This document shows positions 44,434 to 60,900 of a DNA stretch of 64,000 bases, in pieces (the first letter of the stretch is position 1; the number at the start of each line of letters is the position of its first letter). The stretch is from NCBI GenBank assembly GCA_037134915.1, contig JBAXLJ010000003.1, positions 81,084 to 145,083 on the forward strand. The letters are read 5' to 3'. The translations under genes and the position numbers were made by a program. The DNA is from Candidatus Falkowbacteria bacterium (GTDB lineage: Bacteria > Patescibacteriota > Patescibacteriia > Patescibacteriales > UBA12465). Below the pieces are notes generated by a model. The model searched no databases, was not told the origin of the DNA, and saw only the letters and a list, made by a program, of their open reading frames with translations.

Positions 44434-45117
44434 TTAATGGGTTACCTTAGGCATAAGCTCCCGCAGAACGAGGAGCTCATCAATGACTTCCATGACAGAT
44501 CCGTAGATAAAATTCTCCGGAACGCCAGCGGACAGAAACCTTTCCTTGGGATAGATTCTAGAAGAAATAGCCGCAAAATCAATTTTATGTGGACCATGAT
44601 AAGCAGCCGGCAAATCGCAGATTGGAGAATCCCCTACGAACAAAATTTTTTCAACGGTAAACTCCTCTAATATATCCTCAAAAACTCGTGGATCAGGTTT
44701 CATAAAATTATCTTCACGAGTTTTTATAAGGCTAAAGAGATCCGCACCGACTTCCATGTCATCTAAAGCCTTGGTCATCATTCTTCGATTACGATTACTA
44801 ACAAGCCCTAATTTGTAACCAGCCAATTTTAAATTACTTAATTTTAATGGTAAAGAATTTGGGCTGCAAAAACGAGTATTCTCAAAGAAATATTTAATTT
44901 TCAGAGCTACTAATTCTGTTTGGGAATCAGACCAAGAACCAGCTTCCGCTAAAAGTGGGATAATTACCCCATTAAAATCGTGCCCTAAATTGCTTTCGAT
45001 TGTTTTCATATCAAAAGGCAAACGGACGCTTTCGATAATTTGGCACAAGCGAGTCACGGCTTTTTCCATGGAAAAAAGCAGAACTCCGTCCACATCAAAT
45101 AAGATCAATTCTTTCAT
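44434..45117 (-). CDS. HAD-superfamily hydrolase
   Basis: LILFDVDGVLL is HAD motif I (DxD). GDSPICD is motif IV. Confidence 0.7.
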   Translation of the reverse strand: MKELILFDVDGVLLFSMEKAVTRLCQIIESVRLPFDMKTIESNLGHDFNGVIIPLLAEAGSWSDSQTELVALKIKYFFENTRFCSPNSLPLKLSNLKLAGYKLGLVSNRNRRMMTKALDDMEVGADLFSLIKTREDNFMKPDPRVFEDILEEFTVEKILFVGDSPICDLPAAYHGPHKIDFAAISSRIYPKERFLSAGVPENFIYGSVMEVIDELLVLRELMPKVTH

Positions 45118-45165: not shown

Positions 45166-46953
45166 TTATTTTCTAGTCGCTCTAACGCGGTCGTTTTCTG
45201 TTAAATACTGCTTACGTAAACGGACACTTTTAGGTGTTACTTCCAAATATTCATCAGCGTTCATAATACTTAGTCCACGTTCTAAGGTAATTTCCCAAGG
45301 CGGAGTTAAGTTAATGGCTTCATCCGAACCAGAGGCGCGGACATTGGTTAGTTTCTTACCTTTAACTGGATTAACTGACATGTCATTTCCTTTGGCCACG
45401 TTGCCAATTACCATGCCTTCATAAACATCGACGTTAGGCTGGATATAAATCACACCACGTTCCTGTAAATTCCATAAAGCAAAAGCGGCCACCTTTCCGG
45501 TAATCATCGAAATCATCGAACCCAACTGACTGCGTTCAATCGGTCCAGCGTATGGTTTAAAACCTAAAAAGTGAGAGCATAAAATACCTTCACCGCGGGT
45601 ATCAACCACAAATTCATTGCGATAACCTAAGATACCACGAGTCGGAATTTCAAAGATTAAACGGCTCTGACCATTGTGATTTTTTAAATCAGTCATCATA
45701 CCTTTGCGACGAGACATTTTTTCAATGACCACACCGGAACAATTTTCAGGAATATCAATGGTGATTTCTTCAAATGGTTCCAGCTTAACACCGTCAGCCT
45801 CTTTAATAATCGCCTCTGGTTGGGAAACTTGCATTTCATAACCTTCGCGGCGCATATTTTCTAGCAAAATAGCCACGTGTAATTCACCGCGGCCATAAAC
45901 TTTAGCAAAATTATTATCTGAAAAATCAACTTTTAAACCAACATTAACCTCAAGTTCTTTTTCTAGCCGCTCTCTGATTTGGCGGTTAGTCACAAATTTA
46001 CCTTCACGGCCCGCAAAGGGTGAACTATTAACTAAAAAGTTAAGACAAATTGTTGGCTCATCAACCGTAATAGCCGGCAAAGGTTCCTGATTAACATTGT
46101 CACTAATTGTTTCACCAATATAAACATCGGGTAGCCCAGCCACCATCACAATGTCACCAGCGACAGCTTCGGGAATTTCTTGACGAGTTAATCCAGCAAA
46201 AGTAAATAATTTAGTCGTACGACCAGTGGTCATCGTGCCATCTGGTTCCTTAATATAAACTGTTTGATTAGGTTTAATGCTACCTTTATAAATACGGCAA
46301 ATAGCACAACGGCCTAAAAAATTATCATAAGCCAAATTAAAAGGTTGGGCCGCCAGAGTTAAAGTCGCCATCTCAGTCGTCGCGGCTGGAGCTACGTGTT
46401 CAACAATTTTATTCAGCAAGGGGTCAAGGTTATCAGACTCATCTTCTAAATTTAATTTAGCAATGCCCGCTCGGCCATTAGCATAAACGACTGGAAAATC
46501 TAATTGTTCATCAGTGGCACCTAAATCTAAAAACAGTTCATAAACCATTTCCTGGACTTCAGCTGGACGAGCTGCTGGTTTATCAATTTTATTAATGACC
46601 ACAATCGGCTTTAAACCTAATTCTAAAGATTTCTTTAAAACAAATTTAGTTTGCGGCATCGGCCCTTCTTGAGCATCAACGATTAAAAGCACGCAGTCAA
46701 TGGAACGCAAAATACGTTCTACCTCGGAACTAAAATCGGCGTGACCAGGGGTGTCAACAATATTAATCTTATTTTCTTTATAAAAAAGACTGCAATTTTT
46801 TGAGTAAATTGTAATGCCGCGTTCTTGCTCCAGGTTATTGCTGTCCATGCTAGCGCCGGCTTCAGTCATCCCATTTTGACGTAATAAGGCATCGGTTAAA
46901 GTTGTTTTACCATGATCTACGTGAGCGATAATGGCGATGTTTCGAATATCCAT
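45166..46953 (-). CDS. typA: Translational GTPase TypA/BipA
   Basis: AIIAHVDHGKTTL is the G1 motif. DTPGHADF is G3. NKID is G4. Both length (595 aa) and domain order match BipA. Confidence 0.9.
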   Translation of the reverse strand: MDIRNIAIIAHVDHGKTTLTDALLRQNGMTEAGASMDSNNLEQERGITIYSKNCSLFYKENKINIVDTPGHADFSSEVERILRSIDCVLLIVDAQEGPMPQTKFVLKKSLELGLKPIVVINKIDKPAARPAEVQEMVYELFLDLGATDEQLDFPVVYANGRAGIAKLNLEDESDNLDPLLNKIVEHVAPAATTEMATLTLAAQPFNLAYDNFLGRCAICRIYKGSIKPNQTVYIKEPDGTMTTGRTTKLFTFAGLTRQEIPEAVAGDIVMVAGLPDVYIGETISDNVNQEPLPAITVDEPTICLNFLVNSSPFAGREGKFVTNRQIRERLEKELEVNVGLKVDFSDNNFAKVYGRGELHVAILLENMRREGYEMQVSQPEAIIKEADGVKLEPFEEITIDIPENCSGVVIEKMSRRKGMMTDLKNHNGQSRLIFEIPTRGILGYRNEFVVDTRGEGILCSHFLGFKPYAGPIERSQLGSMISMITGKVAAFALWNLQERGVIYIQPNVDVYEGMVIGNVAKGNDMSVNPVKGKKLTNVRASGSDEAINLTPPWEITLERGLSIMNADEYLEVTPKSVRLRKQYLTENDRVRATRK

Positions 46954-47102: not shown

Positions 47103-47142
47103 AAAAAAATGGGTCCCGCTTGAATTGCTTCAAACGAGACCC
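47103..47142 (-). terminator. Intrinsic terminator 6 nt after the GHKL ATPase stop
   Basis: 14-bp imperfect stem gggtcccgcttgaa / ttcaaacgagaccc with 2 mismatches and loop ttgc. On the minus strand it is followed by attttttta. Confidence 0.45.
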
Positions 47143-47148
47143 AATACT

Positions 47149-48792
47149 CTATATTTTCTTCCCTACTTCACTTTTGGCGCGGCGGGGGTGTAACGCTGTG
47201 GCTCCAGAAATAAACAGGCCAGCACTTTTAAGCTCTCGTTGTAAGAACTCAAAAATATAAGGCCGGGATATTTCCGGTTCCAGTTGCATTTCAAGAGCCT
47301 TGATACCGACATACTCTTGGTAGAGTATTAGGCTGCGATCACCAGCTCTTTCCATTCTCTCCCAAATATCGCTTCTCATGTTGAATGAGAGGATACCGGT
47401 TTCGGGATCAAATTCCCAGTGGTGGTCATTCCCCGGCAACTCTTCGTAAACGAATTGTAAACCGGTACTTGACCCTGACACCAAACGACGTTTTTGGCCA
47501 TGAGGACCAGCTACCGTCATTACGATATCTTCTGAGGATTCTTTAGGGACCGAAGAATGACCGCCTTTTTTCTTGGAATATTTTTCCGGCGAGGAAGCCT
47601 TTTTGGATTTATGATCTTGACCCTCTTCTTTGCGCGGTACCGTGATAAAACCTTTTTTAAAGCTTTTAACTACGGCCAATAAATGCGGCAGCTCATTTTT
47701 AATGCTGGACTCCAGCATCGAAATCGCCACCGAACCAACCGCCTGCAACCACTCATCGCGTTGCGAATCCTTCATCGACACCATGGCGGGTTGGGCATAA
47801 TTTTTAGCCCATTCGTCCAAGTGGATAGCCAGATTCATTAAATGATCATCCTCTAAGAATTCTTTGCGGTTTTGATGCAAAGAACACTTATCAGAAACGA
47901 TTAAGCCCTCAAAAGTTCCCGAAGTTAGCATTTGCAGGGTTTCCGGTTTTACATAATCGGCAATTGATTTGGCAAAATCCTTAAAACCGATCCGGAACAA
48001 ATCATTCTTAATCCCGATTGATACTTCACCCTTACGACCAGAGGCCATTTTGGGGGAAATATAAATCTCGAAATAAGTTTGACCAGTAGCTAACTCGCCA
48101 TATATTACTGGCTTCATTTTTTCACCGTGAAATTCCGCGGCTTTAAAGGTCAGCTTTTCAGTTTTACCATCAGCATCCTTAATGCAAATTAATACACTCG
48201 CATTAAGTCTTTTCATGGCTTCTGAAAAACGACCCGAAATGAGGCGTTGCAATTCCACTACTGAAGCGGTTGTAATGCCGCGGTCAGTTTTAAACTCTCG
48301 GATGTTAACCTGAGTGCGCCAGTTATAGACATCCTTGTCTTTCATGGCTTTCCCTGATCTTGAGAAAATAGCTTTATTAAGTTCTGAGTGCGGAATCTCT
48401 GGCAAGTCACCATTTTTAAGAATCCGGTCCGAATTAAAAAACCATTTGTTGTATCCAGAATTTAGCCCTTTAGGAATTGAAGTAATATCAAATTCCTTAC
48501 ACTTTCCCAAAGGTGATAGCATTCCGATGCCAAACTGGCCGAGCTTATCTTTGCCTTTAAGCGAATCGCAAACTTTGCTAATCGCCTCGGAAAATTTGTC
48601 AGTGGAAATACCTTCGCCATCGTCGCGGACTTTGATGTCCCGTTTTTGATGATCAATAATAACGGCGATATCTTTGGCGTTTGAATCCAAAGAATTCTGA
48701 ACCAGTTCGAGCACTACACTCACGATTGTGGGATAGAGGTTAACAATATAACCCAGAGCTTTACCCACATGGATTCCCATTTTGTAATTCAT
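47149..48792 (-). CDS. MORC/paraMORC-like GHKL (Bergerat-fold) ATPase with large uncharacterised C-terminal region
   Basis: N-box ELVQNSLDSNA. G1 box DDGEGI. G2 region LGQFGIGMLSPLGK (the GxFGxG pattern of the HATPase_c_3/MORC type). There is no histidine-kinase H-box or TM helix. It is 547 aa. Confidence 0.6.
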   Translation of the reverse strand: MNYKMGIHVGKALGYIVNLYPTIVSVVLELVQNSLDSNAKDIAVIIDHQKRDIKVRDDGEGISTDKFSEAISKVCDSLKGKDKLGQFGIGMLSPLGKCKEFDITSIPKGLNSGYNKWFFNSDRILKNGDLPEIPHSELNKAIFSRSGKAMKDKDVYNWRTQVNIREFKTDRGITTASVVELQRLISGRFSEAMKRLNASVLICIKDADGKTEKLTFKAAEFHGEKMKPVIYGELATGQTYFEIYISPKMASGRKGEVSIGIKNDLFRIGFKDFAKSIADYVKPETLQMLTSGTFEGLIVSDKCSLHQNRKEFLEDDHLMNLAIHLDEWAKNYAQPAMVSMKDSQRDEWLQAVGSVAISMLESSIKNELPHLLAVVKSFKKGFITVPRKEEGQDHKSKKASSPEKYSKKKGGHSSVPKESSEDIVMTVAGPHGQKRRLVSGSSTGLQFVYEELPGNDHHWEFDPETGILSFNMRSDIWERMERAGDRSLILYQEYVGIKALEMQLEPEISRPYIFEFLQRELKSAGLFISGATALHPRRAKSEVGKKI

Positions 48793-48805
48793 TATTCTGT
48801 TTTTT

Positions 48806-49522
48806 TTATTGGTTTAATTTTTGGTGATAATTCTCTAAGGCTTTTTCGCTGCACAAAGCACCTAATTTTTGACTGATGCGATGAAGTGCGTTAGAAGCGG
48901 CAAATAAAGGAAAGCCGATGCGATTTAAATCGTCGCGCAAAGTAAGACGATATTCTTCAGATGAAGTCGCTAAAAAATCATTCAAGACTTTTTCCAAAGA
49001 ATTAGCATTAGCCGCGGCGGTCAGAATCAGATTAAAAAATAAATTGTAATCAAAATTCATCTCATCAACGATTTTAAGTCCAGCTTCCGGTTGTTGAGTT
49101 TCGGTTTCATCGGTTTTAGCTGCCACAAATTTAGCATTCACAGCTTCAATTAGTTGCTGCGCTTTTTCTGATAACAACCTTGAGCCTCGCAAATTGCGAG
49201 TAAATGAATCTTTGCTGATTCCGGTCATCACAACATAATCTTCAATTGTCGCCCTCTCAGACAACAAGACATAGACTGTGTCACGATTCACCTTCGGTAA
49301 ATCCGAATAACCGTCAACCTTATAACCGGCGCCTTCTAAAAGGGCAGCCGCCTTAAAAAACAGCATAACGTTACCGTTGATGCCTTTTTCTTGGTAATTC
49401 CTGAGCTGCTCATTGCTAATTTGCAATATTTTAGCAGCTCTAGGTTCCTGGCGAGCATATTCCCGCAAACAATCTTTCAGTTCCATATATATAAGTATTA
49501 AATTGTTAAATAACGTGTTCAC
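48806..49522 (-). CDS. Hypothetical protein, upstream operon partner of the GHKL ATPase
   Basis: 238-aa ORF lying 13 bp upstream of the GHKL gene on the same strand. No motif was recognised. Confidence 0.4.
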   Translation of the reverse strand: MNTLFNNLILIYMELKDCLREYARQEPRAAKILQISNEQLRNYQEKGINGNVMLFFKAAALLEGAGYKVDGYSDLPKVNRDTVYVLLSERATIEDYVVMTGISKDSFTRNLRGSRLLSEKAQQLIEAVNAKFVAAKTDETETQQPEAGLKIVDEMNFDYNLFFNLILTAAANANSLEKVLNDFLATSSEEYRLTLRDDLNRIGFPLFAASNALHRISQKLGALCSEKALENYHQKLNQ

Positions 49523-49562
49523 GTAAATATAGCATTTTATTAGATTAATGTCAATACAAAAA

Positions 49563-49593
49563 AGCCCTAATCTGGATTTGCAGGTTAGGGCTT
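49563..49593 (-). terminator. Putative intrinsic terminator after the 376-aa membrane-anchored protein
   Basis: Imperfect hairpin agccctaatctgga / tgcaggttagggct. On the minus strand it is followed by tttttt. Confidence 0.35.
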
Positions 49594-49605
49594 TATTTTC
49601 AAAAG

Positions 49606-50736
49606 TTAATAAGAAAAATCATCCATTAAATCTCCGGAATAATAGAATTCATAAGCTAAAGAGCCAAAAACATAGGTATCTTGACCAATGCTGATTTGTG
49701 AGCCGCCAACTTCAGGATTAGCCTTAGGGTGAGAATTTTGGACCCCAATATTAAAGAGGGTGGCTAAAATCTCGGGGCGATCGGAAATATTATAGCCCGC
49801 CTTTTGCCACTGCGAGGTGATTTGTTTAATAATAACGCCGCCATAAAGATAAGAAAAATAGTGATTTTTTTCATCGGTCAGCCTGGCATATCTTTCGGTC
49901 ACCGGATTATTGCTACTAAAATCTAATAACTTTTCATAATTTGCTCCTAAATAGAAATCTGAGTTTTTATTTTTCAAATTTTGCTCAGCTAAAATCGCGG
50001 CCGCCTCCTTAATTGACATCACCCCCCAGGCCATCTTATTAGCACTGGCTAAAATTTTCAGGGGCTTAAAAACCCGCTCAAACAATTCTCGTTGCGTATA
50101 ATAAAGACGAAGTTGTTCCACAATCGCGACCGATAAGAGTAGGCGCGGCGAAATATTTAATTCCTGCCCTACCCGGTTCAAAGAATCTTTATCTTTAATC
50201 ACGGCTTGGCGAATAATCTGCCAAGGTTCTTCGGTTTGCCACAAAAAAACATTAGCATCTTTGGGATTACTCAAACGCTGATTTAGCCAGTCCAGACTTA
50301 TTTCCGGAGCCTTATCCTGAGAACAGAAAGATAGGCGACTGCCTAATTCCGGCTTATCTTGAAGTCTTAGTTCTAAAGCTAAAATCATTTTTTCAGCCAG
50401 TTCGTAAGACTTATTTTTTTGGTAAGCCGTTAAGATAGTTTTAGCGTTGTAATCTGCATAATCCGACAATATATATAACTTACAATAAACTTTAGCTTCA
50501 TTGATTTTAGCCACATCACGGCTGCCTGGCAAAAAAGACATAATCTGGCGACTCGCCGTTAAACTGTTTTCTAAAGAATTATAAATACCGGTATTTTCAT
50601 CCACATCACCCGCTGTTTTAGTTAAGTTAAAATATACCGCTAAAAAACCAGTTATAAGCAAAACCAAAAAGGCTAGAGCTAAGGCACTAATTATTTTTAA
50701 AACAATTATAAGAATTTTTTTAGCTACTTTACTCAT
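49606..50736 (-). CDS. Hypothetical membrane-anchored protein
   Basis: N-terminal TM (ILIIVLKIISALALAFLVLLITGFLAVYF). It has a roughly 340-aa extracytoplasmic domain. No motif was recognised. Confidence 0.4.
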   Translation of the reverse strand: MSKVAKKILIIVLKIISALALAFLVLLITGFLAVYFNLTKTAGDVDENTGIYNSLENSLTASRQIMSFLPGSRDVAKINEAKVYCKLYILSDYADYNAKTILTAYQKNKSYELAEKMILALELRLQDKPELGSRLSFCSQDKAPEISLDWLNQRLSNPKDANVFLWQTEEPWQIIRQAVIKDKDSLNRVGQELNISPRLLLSVAIVEQLRLYYTQRELFERVFKPLKILASANKMAWGVMSIKEAAAILAEQNLKNKNSDFYLGANYEKLLDFSSNNPVTERYARLTDEKNHYFSYLYGGVIIKQITSQWQKAGYNISDRPEILATLFNIGVQNSHPKANPEVGGSQISIGQDTYVFGSLAYEFYYSGDLMDDFSY

Positions 50737-50855: not shown

Positions 50856-51530
50856 ATGAAAATCTTAATCATTGAAGATGAAACTTCAATCGCTAATTTT
50901 ATTAAAGCTAGTCTAGAAAGCCAGCTTTATATTGTTGATTTAGCTTGCGAAGGCGAACGTGGCGCTTTTTTAGGTCGCACCAATAATTACGACCTAATTA
51001 TTCTAGATTATTTACTACCCAAGAAAAATGGACTTGAAGTCGTCAAGGAAATTCGTCGCGACAAAAGCACGCCGATTATTATGCTAACGGTTTGTGGCGA
51101 ATTTGATTGTAAAGCCCAAGCTTATAGTTATGGCGTGGATGATTTTTTAACTAAGCCATTTTTACTAGAAGAGTTATTTTTAAGAATTAAAGCCTTGCTG
51201 CGCCGACCGCCTAATATTGCGGCCGAAATACTACGAGTCGAAAATCTGTCAATTGATTTGAATCGGCAACTTGTTAGACGCCAGGGGCGGATAATTAATT
51301 TAACCCGAAAAGAATATGCTATTTTAGAATACTTAATGCGTCATCGCGGCGAAATAAAATCTCGAGAAACAATTATTGAAGGCGTTTGGGATATAAATTC
51401 TGATCCGTTCTCTAATACTTTAGATACCCACATCGTCAATCTGCGCCACAAACTAAAACAAAAAGATGAATGCGAATTGATTCACACTTTTCCCGGTCGT
51501 GGTTATAAGCTAGACATTCGAAAATTTTAA
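50856..51530 (+). CDS. OmpR-family winged-helix response regulator (orphan)
   Basis: The receiver has phospho-acceptor Asp in LIILDYLLP. The C-terminal winged HTH is LTRKEYAILEYLMRH...GRGYKL. No histidine kinase is adjacent. Confidence 0.85.
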   Translation: MKILIIEDETSIANFIKASLESQLYIVDLACEGERGAFLGRTNNYDLIILDYLLPKKNGLEVVKEIRRDKSTPIIMLTVCGEFDCKAQAYSYGVDDFLTKPFLLEELFLRIKALLRRPPNIAAEILRVENLSIDLNRQLVRRQGRIINLTRKEYAILEYLMRHRGEIKSRETIIEGVWDINSDPFSNTLDTHIVNLRHKLKQKDECELIHTFPGRGYKLDIRKF

Positions 51531-53042
51531 CATTTCTTCGATTTGGGTGCGGTTATTAGAGAGCCGCGGCACTTTATGTTGGCCGCCTAATTTATTTTTA
51601 TTAGCCAACCAATCATAAAATAGACCAGGGCGAGCGACCACAATATCTGGGGCCAGTAGCGTAAGGTCTTTATAGCGCTTCGCCTCGTAATCAGAGTTTA
51701 AACTCTTTAGCGCTTCATCTAAAGACTTATTAAAATGTGCTAAATCATCGGGCTCGTGTTCAAACTCAATCAGCCACTCGTGCCGACCTTTTTCAGTCTC
51801 GGTCATAAAAACAGGCGCCGCACTAAATTCTTTAACCAAGGCTCCAGTGCGCTCACTGGCAATCGCAATCGCTTGGTCAGCATTATCAACCATTAGCTCC
51901 TCCCCAAAAACATTGATAAAGTGCTTCGTCCGACCGGAAATTTTAAAATAATAAGGTTTTAAATTGGTAAACTGAATCGTATCGCCAATAATATAACGCC
52001 ACAAGCCACCACTGGTCGAAATTATTAAAGCGTAGTTACGATCCAACTCGACTTCAGAAATTGTGTAAGCTTGTGGCTGATCTTTTTCTAGTTCTTCGAG
52101 AGGAACAAATTCGTAAAACACTCCATAGTCCAGCATCAAGAGCATATCATCGCGGCTACTATCGCAGCCAATACCAAAAAAACCCTCGGAAGCGTTATAG
52201 ATATTAACGTAGTTCATATTGGGGCCGCAAATTTTTTTATACTGACTCTGGTAAGGACCAAAAGCCACACCGCCGTGCATAAATAATTCTAAATTAGGCC
52301 AAAGATCCCGGATACTTGAAACACCACTTTCACTAATAAGTTTGCGAAGCAGCACCAACATCCAGGACGGCACACCGGCTAAAGCAACCACGTTTTCCGA
52401 CTTTGTGGTTCTAATAATTTCTTTTAACTTTGACTCCCACTCATCCATCAAGGCGACTGGTAATTCCGGGGTGCGGCCAAATTCGGCCCAGAAAGGTAAA
52501 TTATCCATTAAAATAGCGGACAGATCACCACAATAATTATCACTATTTAATTCATCTTCACGTTTTGAACCGCCTAAACTCAAAGTCTTGCCAGTAAATA
52601 ATTTAGTTTCCGGATGTCTATCGACATAAAGCGCAATAGTATCTTTCCCTCCTTGATAATGACACTCCTCTAAAGAATCTTCGGTAACGGGAATAAATTT
52701 ACTTTTATCATTAGTTGTTCCAGAGGACTTAGCAAACCATTTAACTGTCCCCGGCCATAGCACACCTATTTCTCCCTGACGCGACCGGTCTATCCAAGGC
52801 TTTAAATCATCATATGAAGATAAAGGGACTTGCAATCTAAAAAGACGAAGTGCTGCCGCCAAATCTTTAGTAGAATTTATGTCTTTAAAATTATGAGTTT
52901 TTCCCCAATCAGTGTCGGCAGCCTTATCAACTAAATAACGGAACATTTCCGCTTGCACCTCTTCTGGATATTTTTTGAACAATTCAATGTCTGATAGACG
53001 CCGGATAAATGGAAAAGAAAGAATGGAATTAAGTAGTGACAT
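51510..53042 (-). CDS. GH3-family (ANL-superfamily) acyl-acid amido synthetase-like protein
   Basis: FAKSSGTTNDKSKFIPVT matches the GH3 SSGTSxGxxK AMP-binding motif. YIIGD is the YRxGD equivalent. It is 510 aa. Confidence 0.65.
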   Translation of the reverse strand: MSLLNSILSFPFIRRLSDIELFKKYPEEVQAEMFRYLVDKAADTDWGKTHNFKDINSTKDLAAALRLFRLQVPLSSYDDLKPWIDRSRQGEIGVLWPGTVKWFAKSSGTTNDKSKFIPVTEDSLEECHYQGGKDTIALYVDRHPETKLFTGKTLSLGGSKREDELNSDNYCGDLSAILMDNLPFWAEFGRTPELPVALMDEWESKLKEIIRTTKSENVVALAGVPSWMLVLLRKLISESGVSSIRDLWPNLELFMHGGVAFGPYQSQYKKICGPNMNYVNIYNASEGFFGIGCDSSRDDMLLMLDYGVFYEFVPLEELEKDQPQAYTISEVELDRNYALIISTSGGLWRYIIGDTIQFTNLKPYYFKISGRTKHFINVFGEELMVDNADQAIAIASERTGALVKEFSAAPVFMTETEKGRHEWLIEFEHEPDDLAHFNKSLDEALKSLNSDYEAKRYKDLTLLAPDIVVARPGLFYDWLANKNKLGGQHKVPRLSNNRTQIEEMLKFSNV

Positions 53043-57965: not shown

Positions 57966-60900
57966 TTACTTTTTAATCTCGAAATCAGTACCCACAAAAT
58001 GCATCGTATCTAAGAGCGTTTTAGTTTCCGGCAAAATACCGGCGATAATTACGCTGCTGCCAGAAAAATCATCAATTGTATCTCCAACCTTAGTAAATTC
58101 CTTATTTTTAATCATCATCTTAGCATCGCTAAAGCCAATGTAAACTGGCAAGTAACGTTTACTGCTGAGCCAGATGGGATCAAAATTAGTAATAGCATTT
58201 TTTATTTTATCCGGTAAACCATCTTTACCTTTATAAAATATATCCACACTACCATCTTCGGAAACGACTTGAATTGAAGCCGCGCTGGTCATCTTGTTTA
58301 AGGTATTTTTATTTACTAAATGATAATTATCAATCAAGGTTCCAGTTGGTTCTAAAATACCAACCACTTTAATACTTGGCAAACCAAAAAAATTAGACAA
58401 ACTATCGCCGATACCTTTAATTAGTTTCTCCTTTTTCATCATCATGCCTTCTTCATAACCCACAATAAGCTCGTTGTCACCTAGGACTAAAGTTCCCTCT
58501 TTAGCCTTAAGCGAACTCGGCAAACTGTCGACTCCTAAAAATAATTTAGGATTATTTTCAGCAAAATTAATTTTCGACGGACTTTCTGCTAAGAAATTAT
58601 TAAGACTAGTGGCTGTTTGCGCCGAGACTAAAAGCGCCATGCCAGAATTTTCCATATTGGAGCTGATTTTGGCGAACTCAAAGAAACCAAAAGTAAAGAC
58701 AACAACCATCACAAAGGGTGCCACCAAAGACAGGTAGTTCCGTTTATTTGGCTTGAAATATTTAAGCAGCAACGAATTGCCTACCACCGAAATAGAACTC
58801 ATTGCCATCGCCAGTCCGGCTAATTCCGGCTTTAAAACCAAACCGTAAGCGGTAAAGATACGCGCTGCAATCGGAATACCAATAACATTATAAAACAAAG
58901 CGAAGAACATATTCTGTTTGATCTTGGCCATTGTTTCCTTAGACAACTGAAAGGCGGTCACAACATCATTTAAGTCATTTCTCATAATAACGATGCCGCC
59001 TGTTTCCATGGCCACATCCGTGCCGGACCCCATAGCAATTCCTAAATCAGCTTGAGCTAGAGCCGGAGCATCATTAATACCATCACCAACCATAGCTACT
59101 TTTTTATTGGCTTGCTGCAATTTTTTAACTTCATTCGCTTTTTCTTCAGGTAACACCTCGGCTAAAACGTGGTCAATACCGACTGAGGCGGCAATGGCCC
59201 TGGCCGTACGTTCGTTGTCACCGGTAATCATATAAACAGTAATGCCTAGTTTTTTTAATTTAGACACCGCCGCAGCGGAACTCGGCTTAACGGTATCGGC
59301 CACCGCTACTGACCCTAATATTTTTTCCGAAGTCGCCAGTAACATAGCCGTTTTACCCTGCTCTTCTAACTTAGTTAATTTGCGATTTACTTTATCAATT
59401 GAGTGTCCTAAAACATCCGTCATTAACCTTCGGTTGCCAAAATAATATTCAATATCATTAATTATTCCTTTAACTCCATGACCGGCGATAGCGGAGAAGT
59501 TTTTAACTTCACTCAGTGCCACCGATTCTTCATTGGCGTAAGAATAAATAGCTTCCGCTAGCGGGTGCTCTGATTGTTTTTCTAAACTAGCAGCGACCAT
59601 CAAAATTTCATCTTCATCAAGATTATCAAAAGTAATAATGTCGGTAACTTCCGGCTTACCTTTAGTGAGAGTCCCCGTCTTATCAAAAATAACCGTATCA
59701 ATGTGACAAGCCGCTTCTAGCGGTTCACCGCCTTTAACTAAGATGCCATACTCCGCCCCTTTACCGGTGCCCACCATTAAAGATGTCGGTGTGGCTAAAC
59801 CTAAAGCGCAGGGACAAGCAATCACAATTACAGCCGTAAAAGCCATCAAAGCGAAAGATAAAGTCGCACCTAAAAAGAAATACCAAACTACAAAAGTAAT
59901 AATAGCTAGACTAATTACCGTGGGGACAAAGACCGCAGAAATTTTATCGGCGAAACCTTGAATCGGCGCCTTAGAACCCTGAGCGTCCTCAATCAAGCGA
60001 ATAATCTGAGCCAAGGCTGTTTCATTGCCAATTTTATTAACTACAAATTCAAAGCTCCCGGTCTTATTAACGGTGGCACCAATAACATTATCACCTTCCT
60101 TTTTTTCAACCGGCAAACTCTCGCCGGTAATCATCGATTCATCAATGGCGGATGTTCCTTTAACAATTTGACCATCAACTGGAATTTTTTCACCCGGACG
60201 AACAATAACAATATCACCGCGAACCACCTCTTCAATCGCAATATCCGAAGTAACTCCGTTTCTTATCACCCGCGCCGTCTTAGCCTGCAGGCCCATTAAT
60301 TTTTTAATAGCATCACCGGTTTTACTTTTAGTTCTAATTTCTAACCACTTCCCCAAAATTACAAAAGTAATTAAATAGGCGGCGGTTTCAAAATATAGTT
60401 CCGGAATTTTACCGCCAAGACCAATAATTGACCGCGTCTTAATAAAGTAGCTGACAAAATTAACCAAGCTATAAATAAAAGCCGTGGAAGTACCAATAGC
60501 AATCAGACTATCCATGTTAAAGGTCTTCATTTTAAGCGAGGCCCACATCCCTTGATAAAACCTGGCCCCAATAATGAATTGAATCGGTAGGGTTAAGATA
60601 AGCGAAGTAATGCCGACATAGGGCAGAAGGGCTTCCTTGCCCGGAATAGCGAAGAAATCAAGTAACATAAAATACAGCATCGGCAAGCTTAGGGCAAAAC
60701 TAAGCCAAAAACTTTTAGCATAGTTTTTAGTTTCCTGTTCACGTTTACGTCTTTCATAATCAGCATCTTTAGCATCAACCATTTCTGCTTTATACCCGGC
60801 CTTAGAAACGGCTTCAATTAATTTTTGAGAGTTAACTTGAGACTCATCGTAAATAATATTAGCTTTTTCAGCGGCAAAATTAACGCTAGCTGAGCTGACT

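Follow-up and report, generated by a model that had tools for sequence, protein, structure and literature searches.

Organisation of the locus

The region 47149-49522 on the minus strand of the window, by which we mean the complete stretch of 64,000 nt that was analysed from a Candidatus Falkowbacteria MAG, carries a self-contained bicistron with its own promoter and terminator. The second gene (47149-48792, minus strand) encodes a GHKL ATPase of 547 aa (MEI6835910.1, annotated 'ATP-binding protein'). The first gene (48806-49486, minus strand) encodes a partner of 226 aa (MEI6835911.1, annotated as hypothetical protein), and 13 nt separate its stop codon from the ATG of the ATPase gene. Both ORFs lie on the minus strand at the coordinates given in the original prediction, and the 13 nt spacing stated there is correct, but the length of 238 aa assigned to the upstream ORF is not, as the GTG-start ORF running to 49522 is an over-extension of the partner gene. 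We place the start at the ATG at 49486, since the -10 hexamer of the promoter ends at 49526, homologues begin with MELKD and the NCBI gene call is 226 aa. Both genes are under purifying selection, with dN/dS values of 0.067 (ATPase) and 0.126 (partner) in the comparison with the nearest relative, and by sequence criteria they are genuine genes rather than chance ORFs. A 376-aa ORF further upstream was considered as a third gene of the module and rejected, since neither the syntenic relative L046 nor any other locus has it.

The predicted promoter is of the sigma-70 type (49526-49554, minus strand; TTGACA-17 nt-TATATT, with a TG before the -10 hexamer, thus an extended -10) and deviates from the consensus at only one of 12 positions. 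The arrangement TTGACA...TAnnnT, with a partly conserved spacer, recurs in the relatives L045, L046, L008 and L001. At the other end, an intrinsic terminator (47110-47143, minus strand) with a 15-pair stem, a 4-nt loop and a T-run is found 5-6 nt downstream of the ATPase stop codon, in agreement with the dedicated terminator noted earlier.

The 5' leader contains an element at 49497-49520 (minus strand), composed of GAAC at 49520-49517 and the core TTAACAAT at 49509-49502, which we regard as a putative operator or leader element. In relatives carrying the motif GAACATTAACAAT(C), it is located in the 60 nt that precede the ATG of the partner gene. Among the sequences that served both to define the motif and to count its occurrences, L021 and L049, with ATPases of only 29% identity, have exact copies, and L051, L052 and L064 have copies with one mismatch; the clade of the window has degenerate versions, and the motif is missing from the GC-rich clades. 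An inverted copy of the element upstream of the promoter (12/15 positions) is too AT-rich to serve as evidence, and the sole other near-match within the window, at 60200, falls within a gene for a 1148-aa protein and was taken as a chance occurrence.

The GHKL ATPase

The Bergerat-fold motifs on which the original prediction was based are in place (ELVQNSLDSNA at residues 29-39, DDGEGI at 57-62 and GQFGIGMLS at 85-93) and occur in the order typical of GHKL proteins, with E29/N33 in motif I, D57-G59-G61 in motif II and G85-G88-G90 in motif III. The Pfam domain HATPase_c_3 (PF13589) matches residues 25-117 above its cut-off (E 7e-15), and E29, N33, D57, G59, G61, G85, G88, G90 and C98 are invariant or nearly so in alignments of 42 and 97 homologues. 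Judged by its motifs, the ATPase is catalytically intact, with all those for ATP binding and hydrolysis present. The predicted lack of sensor-kinase features also holds, as no HisKA or sensor domain was found.

The GHKL domain (residues 1-120; 48433-48792, minus strand) is modelled by AF2 with a pLDDT of ~90 as an N-terminal strap and an ATP-binding Bergerat fold. It is followed by a beta-rich, transducer-like second domain (residues 121-315; 47848-48432, minus strand), in which G223, G296 and R309 are invariant and F312 is near-invariant; by analogy, R309 may be the gamma-phosphate sensor. The isolated middle domain has no meaningful Pfam match. In Foldseek, GHKL and second domain together superpose on the N-terminal domain of PMS1/MutL (3h4l; TM 0.61 over 374 columns) and also on GyrB 43K and the N-M region of Hsp90/TRAP1, which is the two-domain architecture of GHKL plus transducer (S5-like) ATPases. 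Of the three features that were to be sought by structure and profile comparison, the transducer-like domain is thus found, as is an HTH domain in homologues of the partner, while no nuclease was detected.

The remainder of the protein begins with a helical segment (residues 316-376; 47665-47847, minus strand) formed by a helix of ~50 residues and a short helix (316-366 and 369-376 in the AF2 model). It continues with a K/S/G-rich linker (residues 377-424; 47521-47664, minus strand), predicted to be disordered (pLDDT <50 over residues 382-421), which varies in sequence and length and is gap-rich in the alignment. The C-terminal domain (residues 425-547; 47152-47520, minus strand) is predicted to consist of four strands followed by three helices, and its residues G444 and N471 are invariant. 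In isolation it matches no Pfam family at E<=10, and an acidic/Lys catalytic pattern (E-D-ExK) is not conserved in either the 42- or the 97-sequence alignment. We consider it a family-specific domain that may serve in dimerisation or partner binding; it could also conceal an activity.

These features might suggest a diverged housekeeping GHKL protein, namely a MutL- or HtpG-like protein, a topoisomerase subunit or a histidine kinase, which merely lies beside an unrelated gene. The top sequence matches are to MutL motifs I-II (E 3.5e-8 in the PDB; 39.8 bits for TIGR00585), the top folds are Hsp90/TRAP1, GyrB and PMS1, and the disordered linker ahead of the C-terminal domain recalls MutL. However, the scores are far below every curated cut-off. 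The TIGR00585 match covers only 50 residues against a cut-off of 180 bits, and MutL_C is not matched. The likeness to HtpG/Hsp90 exists at the fold level only (12.7 bits vs 371 for PRK05218; 17.2 vs 455 for PRK14083), Top6B models reach 12.5 to 15.6 bits against cut-offs of 274 to 381, and histidine kinase models reach 12 to 14 bits vs 350 to 775, in a protein which lacks HisKA and has its GHKL domain at the extreme N-terminus. Neither TOPRIM nor the Hsp90 middle and C-terminal domains were matched by Pfam. As strict linkage to and co-evolution with an HTH partner (see below) are also foreign to such families, we regard this explanation as highly improbable and largely refuted; the reading of the ATPase as something other than a MutL or HtpG fragment or a histidine kinase has been upheld.

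The partner protein

The partner is predicted to be all-helical, with two helix-turn-helix units in tandem ahead of a C-terminal domain that carries an invariant LC[S/G]E-type motif. The first HTH is assigned to residues ~14-50 (49337-49447, minus strand), within a region (residues 1-60) modelled as entirely helical with a pLDDT of 70-87. Its assignment comes from the family: homologues match HTH_17 (1.1e-6), HTH_23 (5e-6), HTH_Tnp_ISL3 (1.4e-5) and HTH_3 (2e-4) as well as PHROG repressor families (6e-5), and the family profile matches the P22 C2 repressor with E 0.02. The partner of the window itself has no HTH match in any library (PADLOC, NCBIfam, PHROGs, Pfam), nor do its halves, searched singly against Pfam, give a meaningful match. 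The AF2 model is poor overall (pLDDT 52.6); DdrO and SinR come out on top of the fold search but are not significant, all PDB matches having E>1. By its homologues and family profile, we classify the partner as a predicted HTH DNA-binding protein, of a subclass that may be XRE or MerR/excisionase-like.

A second, degenerate HTH-like repeat is proposed at residues ~80-115 (49142-49249, minus strand). When residues 16-46 and 83-113 of the family alignment are compared by hhalign, P is 4.5e-5 with a probability of 69%, modest support for a repeat that is weaker than the well-supported first one. The helical, family-specific C-terminal domain (residues ~147-226; 48809-49048, minus strand) is the best-conserved portion among 23 diverged partners, with invariant R180 and C212 in the motif R..LR ... 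LC[S/G]E[K/R]A; it has no Pfam match and is modelled with low confidence.

Conservation of the gene pair

That the two genes belong together, as first suggested by their operon-like arrangement, is borne out in other genomes, where they are co-conserved as a unit. In all 60 distinct loci having the relevant flank the ATPase and the partner are adjacent, and these two are the only genes which the 60 loci share, as there is no common third gene. The pair is often translationally coupled, and in roughly half of the loci the ORFs share 1 or 4 nt. ATPase and partner also co-evolve (Mantel r 0.81, a value reached in none of 2000 permutations), with the partner changing faster than its neighbours: between the window and L046, identity reaches 85% in the ATPase and 96% in BipA but 52% in the partner. 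A profile search returned 436 full-length representatives at E<=1e-30, and at 50% identity the family comprises 436 clusters or more. The pair is confined to Patescibacteria and phage-like elements. It is a large and sharply defined family that is annotated merely as 'ATP-binding protein' and 'hypothetical protein'.

A bicistron of this kind may call to mind a toxin-antitoxin or abortive-infection-like system, in which a toxic GHKL ATPase would be neutralised by the HTH protein, an antitoxin repressing its own synthesis, in a layout like that of HipB-HipA. The upstream position of the HTH gene and the overlap or close spacing of the genes are compatible with this, as are the strong promoter of the operon, the leader element that might serve as operator, the faster evolution of the putative antitoxin, a gene order that can be inverted as in some TA families, and a weak match of one partner homologue to YdaS (E 8e-4). 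On the other hand, type II TA components are typically far smaller than either protein, none of the known toxin folds was detected, there was no pattern of multiple copies or of mobile elements, and the pair is syntenic within lineages. The ATPase also retains a full clamp-type architecture, which would be superfluous for a simple toxin. We consider a toxin-antitoxin function unlikely.

Genomic context

The proteins encoded within two genes either side of the pair at ~45 loci (125 proteins) belong to housekeeping families only. No methylase, SFII helicase, nuclease/REase or defence-island signal was found within this distance, nor is the pair enriched near defence or mobile-element genes. Its position is inherited syntenically within lineages, and no presence/absence polymorphism was seen beside identical BipA genes, although the sample was small. 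The co-location with other defence genes and the restriction-modification-like linkage (methylase, SFII helicase, REase), both of which had been anticipated, are thus not observed around the ~45 loci, and the absence of enrichment near defence and mobile genes, together with the syntenic inheritance, weakens a reading in terms of genetic conflict.

The gene order is reversed in a divergent branch, where the intact pair belongs to a conserved block beside a T4 gp13-type neck gene. In this phage-like branch, it looks like a core gene pair rather than a moron. Scans of IMG/VR with three different queries returned unrelated GHKL proteins only, and none of 50,697 GenBank phage records was matched by tblastn, so that the branch lies outside the catalogued phage collections. 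Two neighbours of the pair in this branch (782 aa and 559 aa) have no informative PDB match.

The original prediction had been of a MORC/paraMORC-type module for compact, nucleic-acid-targeting anti-phage defence, with a cryptic nuclease in the C-terminal domain of the ATPase or in the partner. Several features fit this idea: the architecture of GHKL plus second domain is that of the paraMORC proteins (PMC2292703), the two-gene module has homologues in phage-like elements, the partner changes quickly, and GHKL-nuclease fusions such as VcSduA/paraMORC3 do protect from phage (PMC12137116). Of the effector sought in the C-terminal 420 aa of the ATPase or in the partner, however, only DNA binding is recovered, as the predicted HTH of the latter; neither of them matched a nuclease, TIR or other effector domain in any of the libraries searched, DUF4263 included, and a D/E-K pattern is not conserved in the C-terminal domain. 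The PADLOC matches are weak and restricted to the GHKL core, the defence-related neighbours are missing, synteny is stable within lineages, and a core-like pair in the phage-like branch is not what a moron would look like. A nuclease-based defence system is accordingly an improbable explanation.

Yet another explanation is a signalling or transcription switch, in which the GHKL protein would modify or remodel an HTH repressor, as in CapK-CapS or SpoIIAB-SpoIIAA. Regulatory pairs of GHKL and HTH proteins do exist (CapK/CapS, PMC13373217), and the motif conserved in the leader points to sequence-specific binding of DNA at the promoter of the pair itself. Against this stand the lack of STAS domains and the size of the ATPase, which with 547 aa and a transducer-type domain is not a small anti-sigma-type kinase. 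Moreover, no adjacent operon is conserved that could be regulated, as the ATPase gene of the window is directly followed by a terminator and the neighbours differ everywhere. We see only a small chance that this explanation is correct.

A proposed mechanism

Of the possible explanations, we favour an autoregulated, ATP-gated DNA clamp that is guided by the HTH partner, and assign it a probability of roughly 0.35. The ATPase would form a dimer, joined via its C-terminal domain, with an N-terminal gate that shuts upon ATP binding in the manner of MutL, Hsp90 and MORC. The HTH partner would bind specific DNA, including the GAACATTAACAAT-like site in its own leader, and for this reason the operon would be autoregulated. 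Through its conserved C-terminal motif the partner might dock on the ATPase, whose ATP cycle would then clamp, compact or release the partner-bound DNA with no nuclease being involved, the module as a whole acting as an ATP-gated, sequence-targeted DNA clamp or silencer. Its biological use would most probably be the control of foreign or mobile DNA, or else a DNA transaction common to Patescibacteria and a group of phages with a T4-type neck.

A bolder version is that the pair represents an unrecognised class of nuclease-free, two-component DNA machines, specific to Patescibacteria and T4-type-neck phages and consisting of a GHKL clamp, a tandem-HTH adaptor and a cis site. Such machines could be ATP-driven silencers of xenogeneic DNA, a new anti-phage mechanism, or a GHKL-based system for DNA positioning or partition. 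We consider this version doubtful.

Much of bacterial diversity belongs to the Patescibacteria (the Candidate Phyla Radiation), whose lineage-specific genes are for the most part without known function. The module described here unites an ATP-gated clamp in the style of MutL, Hsp90 and MORC with a predicted sequence-specific DNA binder. If the clamp-plus-adaptor reading is correct, prokaryotes would possess in it a counterpart to MORC-type DNA silencing that does not depend on restriction-modification, and it would provide a handle on DNA management in ultra-small bacteria and their phages. Should the pair instead act in defence or as a toxin-antitoxin system, it would be a new family that is missed by current defence-finding tools.

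Comparison with known systems

Prokaryotic MORC and paraMORC proteins occur in the context of SFII helicases, methylases and RE-fold/HNH/Vsr endonucleases (Iyer, Abhiman and Aravind 2008, PMC2292703). The ATPase of the window shares with paraMORC1-5 the GHKL plus S5-like module with a family-specific C-terminal extension, a small conserved neighbourhood and the Pfam domain HATPase_c_3. It was not assigned to them, as the neighbourhood of SFII helicase, methylase and RE-fold/HNH/Vsr genes that defines them was not found around the ~45 loci of the pair. It also lacks the RE-fold of paraMORC3 (the DUF4263 nuclease of GHKL-Shedu), the TIR domain of paraMORC4 and Morc6_S5, and it is accompanied by an HTH protein. 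The MORC type that had been proposed could likewise not be retained: there is no MORC Pfam match, and the profile meets MORC2 only in the GHKL core (residues 20-98, E 1.4e-4), more weakly than it meets MutL motifs I-II. With VcSduA, a GHKL-nuclease fusion of the paraMORC3 type that defends against phage (PMC12137116), the ATPase has in common a length of ~550-600 aa, an N-terminal GHKL domain, a clamp-like middle part and a separate C-terminal domain. In VcSduA, however, the latter is a DUF4263 PD-(D/E)xK nuclease, of which the ATPase has neither domain nor motif, and VcSduA is a single-gene system (PMC12137116) whereas the window has an obligate pair.

Membership in a defence system was taken to require a full-length match as well as the companion genes. 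The best PADLOC match of the ATPase is TmtA (E 2e-4, 17 bits, residues 18-91 only), with none for the partner, and Mza and the GHKL-type II REase were rejected likewise (MzaB 17 bits vs 850; BbrUII 33.6 vs 550). In PADLOC, NCBIfam, PHROGs and Pfam alike, matches of the ATPase are confined to the GHKL core.

The likeness to MutL, GyrB 43K, Top6B and Hsp90-TRAP1 comprises motifs I-III, the catalytic Glu, the Mg-binding Asn and a superposing second domain, and in the case of MutL also a flexible linker ahead of a separate C-terminal domain. That domain has no sequence relation to MutL_C or to the C-terminal domain of Hsp90. The ATPase further differs from all of these proteins in its obligate HTH partner, its narrow range and its failure to reach any curated threshold. 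Phage rIIA, which is paired with rIIB, recurs among the fold matches and also has a GHKL N-domain, a middle domain and a variable C-terminal region, but the PHROG families of rIIA are matched only weakly (E 0.005 to 0.05) and in the GHKL core alone, and the partner is unrelated to rIIB. The best phage-family match of the ATPase is phrog_6203 (E 3e-12), a PHROG without assigned function.

The pair is also reminiscent of CapK-CapS, as in both a GHKL protein and a DNA-binding HTH protein form a two-gene unit that probably regulates its own promoter (PMC13373217). CapK is an anti-sigma-type kinase with the domain order HTH-STAS-GHKL, CapS has the order STAS-wHTH, and CapKS is located upstream of immune operons (PMC13373217). 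An identity with this system was rejected, as neither protein of the pair has a STAS match and no downstream operon is conserved. For the version in which the pair would position or partition DNA by means of a GHKL protein, ParA/ParB and TubZ/TubR may be regarded as analogues.

Operon structure and gene starts

The module lies on the minus strand and consists of a GHKL ATPase gene at 47149–48792 (547 aa) and, 13 nt upstream of it, a partner ORF at 48806–49522 (238 aa from a GTG start), which NCBI names 'ATP-binding protein' and 'hypothetical protein', respectively. The original prediction had described both reading frames, their 13 bp spacing and a terminator directly after the ATPase, and all of these are present, the terminator being a 15-pair hairpin with a T-run 3' of the ATPase stop codon (47143–47110, minus strand). 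The length given there for the partner had to be revised. As the -10 hexamer of the promoter (TTGACA-17-TATATT, 49554–49526, minus strand, matching 11 of 12 consensus positions) ends at 49526, as all homologues begin at the equivalent methionine and as NCBI annotates 226 aa, the true start is the ATG at 49486, which gives a protein of 226 aa.

A distinct family of GHKL ATPases

The assignment of the 547-aa protein to the GHKL superfamily was borne out. The three Bergerat-fold motifs on which it had been based are found at residues 29–39, 57–62 and 85–93, and the sole Pfam match is to HATPase_c_3 (residues 25–117, E 7e-15). A word-indexed search for relatives returned 42 clusters, every one of 543–651 aa, and an exhaustive search with a profile yielded 436 full-length representatives at E≤1e-30, rising to 620 at 1e-10 and 7591 at 1e-3; the family is a large, sharply delimited group within the superfamily. 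Conservation was scored in a set of 42 sequences and in a set of 97 more diverse ones. Invariant in both are Y20, Q32, N33, D57, G59, G61 and G90 and, beyond the motifs, G223, G296, R309, W328, G444 and N471, while E29, D36, K79, G85, G88, C98 and F312 are invariant in the 42 and conserved in at least 90% of the 97. As the residues for ATP binding and hydrolysis are conserved in both sets, the ATPase residues are intact.

The AF2 model (pLDDT 78.5) has five regions: the GHKL domain (residues 1–120), a beta-rich second domain (121–315), a helix of about 50 residues (316–366), a disordered, K/S-rich linker (382–421) and a C-terminal domain of four strands and three helices (425–535). In a Foldseek search of the PDB, the first two domains superpose on Hsp90/TRAP1 (E 1e-12), on GyrB 43K (target-normalised TM 0.44–0.45) and on the PMS1 NTD (3h4l; TM 0.61 over 374 columns); among viral models, the fold resembles phage topoisomerase ATPase subunits, rIIA and Hsp90-like proteins. 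The closest solved proteins by sequence are MutL N-domains, over only about 50 residues round motifs I–II. That the protein is a diverged housekeeping GHKL protein is nevertheless very improbable, since it scores 39.8 bits against a curated cut-off of 180 for MutL, 12.7 against 371 for HtpG and about 13–16 against 274–381 for Top6B. Kinase models reach about 12–14 against 350–775 bits and, with HATPase_c_3 as the only Pfam match, this agrees with the lack of sensor-kinase features noted earlier. The nuclease suggested for the C-terminal region did not materialise: Pfam gives nothing for the middle and C-terminal domains even at E≤10, and no nuclease-type acidic/Lys pattern is conserved in the ATPase alignments.

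The partner protein

The window partner matches nothing in Pfam, NCBIfam, PHROGs or PADLOC, and its AF2 model is poor (pLDDT 52.6) and all-helical, with about 60 confident N-terminal residues. Its best fold matches are DdrO, SinR and HTH_3 proteins, none of them significant. The evidence that it is probably an HTH protein, and that DNA binding would reside in the partner, one of the two places anticipated, comes from family members: homologues match HTH_17 (1.1e-6), HTH_23 (5e-6), HTH_Tnp_ISL3 (1.4e-5) and HTH_3 (2e-4), the family profile matches the P22 C2 repressor (E 0.02), and a partner from the phage-like branch matches PHROG repressor families (6e-5). An hhalign comparison of residues 16–46 with 83–113 (P 4.5e-5) is a modest sign of a tandem HTH repeat. 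The best-conserved part is the C-terminal helical domain, where R180 and C212, both invariant, form part of an R..LR...LC[S/G]E[K/R]A motif.

Each protein has a conserved cysteine. Partner C212 (window 48851–48853), inside the LC[S/G]E motif, is invariant in 23 sequences; ATPase C98 (48499–48501), beside the ATP-lid/G2 box, is invariant in the set of 42 and near-invariant in the 97. The two could make up a joint metal or redox site, or else a contact at an interface.

Linkage of the two genes

Loci were gathered by encoding-contig look-ups, one genome scan and one metagenome scan, and their ORFs were searched with profiles of both proteins. Among 60 distinct family loci, the partner adjoins the ATPase in every case where the contig extends over the flank in question. 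The partner gene comes first in the Patescibacteria branch, where roughly half of the loci show an overlap of 1 or 4 nt between the two ORFs. When all the neighbouring reading frames were clustered, these two were the only genes common across loci, and their pairwise identity matrices are correlated (Mantel r 0.81, reached by none of 2000 permutations). The pair is thus clearly conserved as a unit, and the lack of co-conservation that would have counted against the original prediction was not found. Our data show the obligate coupling of an intact ATPase of GHKL plus transducer type to an HTH protein. Such a pair might be read as a toxin-antitoxin or abortive-infection system, which we consider doubtful.

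Against a 95%-identical relative (L045), dN/dS is 0.067 for the ATPase, 0.126 for the partner and 0.006 for the adjacent BipA; against the 85%-identical L046 it is 0.048 for the ATPase and 0.204 for the partner, at identities of 85% and 52%, compared with 96% for BipA.

Genomic context and distribution

In the window the module sits between typA/bipA (45166–46953) and an orphan 376-aa gene; genes for HAD, RNase HII, HD, an OmpR-type response regulator, GH3 and ABC-F lie farther away. L046 is syntenic except for the 376-aa gene, and the pair is also present in strains with identical BipA. The 125 neighbouring proteins at about 45 loci (up to two genes on each side) match 125 different Pfam families, none of which occurs more than 5 times. 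The families have housekeeping roles, among them HAD hydrolases, P-type ATPases, tRNA synthetases, peptidases, ParA/ParB, GreA and BipA, and methylase, helicase, nuclease and integrase families are absent from the 25 most frequent ones listed. Given the housekeeping neighbours and the synteny in relatives, the module is inherited vertically over moderate distances and belongs to neither a defence island nor a restriction-modification neighbourhood, so that the defence context once proposed falls away. A defence system with a cryptic nuclease is unlikely on this evidence.

Though widespread in Patescibacteria, the module is not universal there; the records that carry it are named as Falkowbacteria, Saccharibacteria, Paceibacter/Parcubacteria and Taylorbacteria. 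Seven further records carrying it (L009, L010, L011, L013, L016, L021 and L028) are titled 'uncultured Gammaproteobacteria bacterium', probably wrongly; flanking genes of L016 and L028 also occur on the Patescibacteria contig L003. In one clade (L009, 7816–9469; L010; L011, 4366–6027) parA- and parB-like genes lie directly downstream of the ATPase, which may reflect a position near the replication origin.

The 376-aa ORF (49606–50736, minus strand) carries a terminator of its own (hairpin 49558–49597) and resembles no family of Pfam, NCBIfam or PHROGs. Close strains (L089) have it too; being missing from the otherwise syntenic L046, it was rejected as a module member and is regarded as a lineage-specific orphan insertion. 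The HAD-family hydrolase adjoining typA/bipA (44434–45117, minus strand) is 52% identical to that of L045 (4561–5292), the BipA proteins being 100% identical; its version (227 or 243 aa) differs by strain (also L090–L092), which looks like allelic replacement or a recombination boundary. The response regulator gene (50856–51530, plus strand), with no histidine kinase gene nearby in the window, converges with a 21-nt overlap on the GH3-family gene (51510–53042, minus strand), which is acyl-acid amido synthetase-like and of a family unusual for a Patescibacteria genome.

A leader motif upstream of the partner

When upstream regions were aligned on corrected start codons, the AT-rich clades showed a strong promoter. 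No more than 60 nt ahead of the partner ATG there is also a leader motif, GAACATTAACAAT(C). L021 (5064–5076) and L049 (1330–1342) have it exactly, although their ATPases share 29% identity and their partners can hardly be aligned, an agreement far beyond chance. One mismatch is seen in L051 (6231), L052 (6221) and L064 (3663), and degenerate versions occur in L012, L010, L046, L081 and the window clade, where the element (49497–49520, minus strand) comprises GAAC (49520–49517) and TTAACAAT (49509–49502). With up to one mismatch, GAACATTAACAAT has 8 matches in 1.25 Mb of searched strands, 5 of them in upstream windows, a count that is partly circular because some of these sequences had served to define the motif. 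It could act as an operator or as a leader element at the RNA level, the simplest reading being an operator through which the HTH partner would regulate its own operon.

A second, phage-like branch

Ten distinct loci (L005, L007, L035, L037, L038, L068, L069, L071, L073 and L082) carry ATPases about 25% identical to that of the window, in reversed gene order, the ATPase and partner ORFs overlapping or lying almost end to end. The pair is part of a conserved block whose genes all point the same way: first come those for a CCA-adding-type nucleotidyltransferase and an M24 peptidase, then several small orphans, a 559–578-aa and an 85-aa orphan, the ATPase followed by the partner, and finally a 239-aa gene whose product is homologous to the T4 neck protein gp13 (Pfam PF26809; PDB 9mkb, E 1e-7). 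The synteny holds across GC contents of 40–61%, on contigs of up to 157 kb; block positions are L005 1–13740, L007, L035/L036 1–16708, L037 and L068–L077. The block was not found in IMG/VR or GenBank phage records, and the branch is probably an uncatalogued phage or prophage group. With the pair as a core component of such a group, an intrinsic DNA-related function would be indicated rather than that of an accessory cargo gene.

Proposed mechanism

We tentatively favour, at a probability of about one in three, a clamp-plus-adaptor mechanism modelled on MutL, Hsp90, GyrB and MORC. The ATPase would dimerise through its C-terminal domain as a constitutive interface, and its N-terminal gate would close upon ATP, with R309 as a candidate gamma-phosphate sensor by analogy to Hsp90 R380 and MutL K307. 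The partner would provide sequence-specific DNA binding and dock via its conserved C-terminal motif, and ATP turnover would clamp or remodel the partner-bound DNA.

Comparison with known systems

Prokaryotic MORC and paraMORC proteins are defined by a GHKL and S5 module in a neighbourhood of SFII helicase, methylase and endonuclease genes (PMC2292703). The pair resembles them in architecture but lacks these neighbours, and the label is not retained. ParaMORC3/VcSduA carries a DUF4263 nuclease (PMC12137116) that is absent from the window pair, and rIIA has the generic fold alone in common with the ATPase. CapK/CapS relies on STAS domains and is encoded ahead of immune operons (PMC13373217), whereas the window pair has neither STAS domains nor a downstream immune operon; a pure transcription switch of this kind, to which a putative operator would be suited, thus seems improbable beside the clamp-plus-adaptor mechanism. 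Full-text searches of the literature that joined GHKL to the Candidate Phyla Radiation, to anti-phage terms or to HTH turned up no account of the pair. What stands of the earlier interpretation is the GHKL identity, the co-conserved pair and the predicted DNA-binding partner; its MORC/paraMORC label, defence context and nuclease are not supported. The module joins a GHKL clamp-type ATPase to an HTH protein as its obligate partner and is confined to Patescibacteria and phage-like elements.
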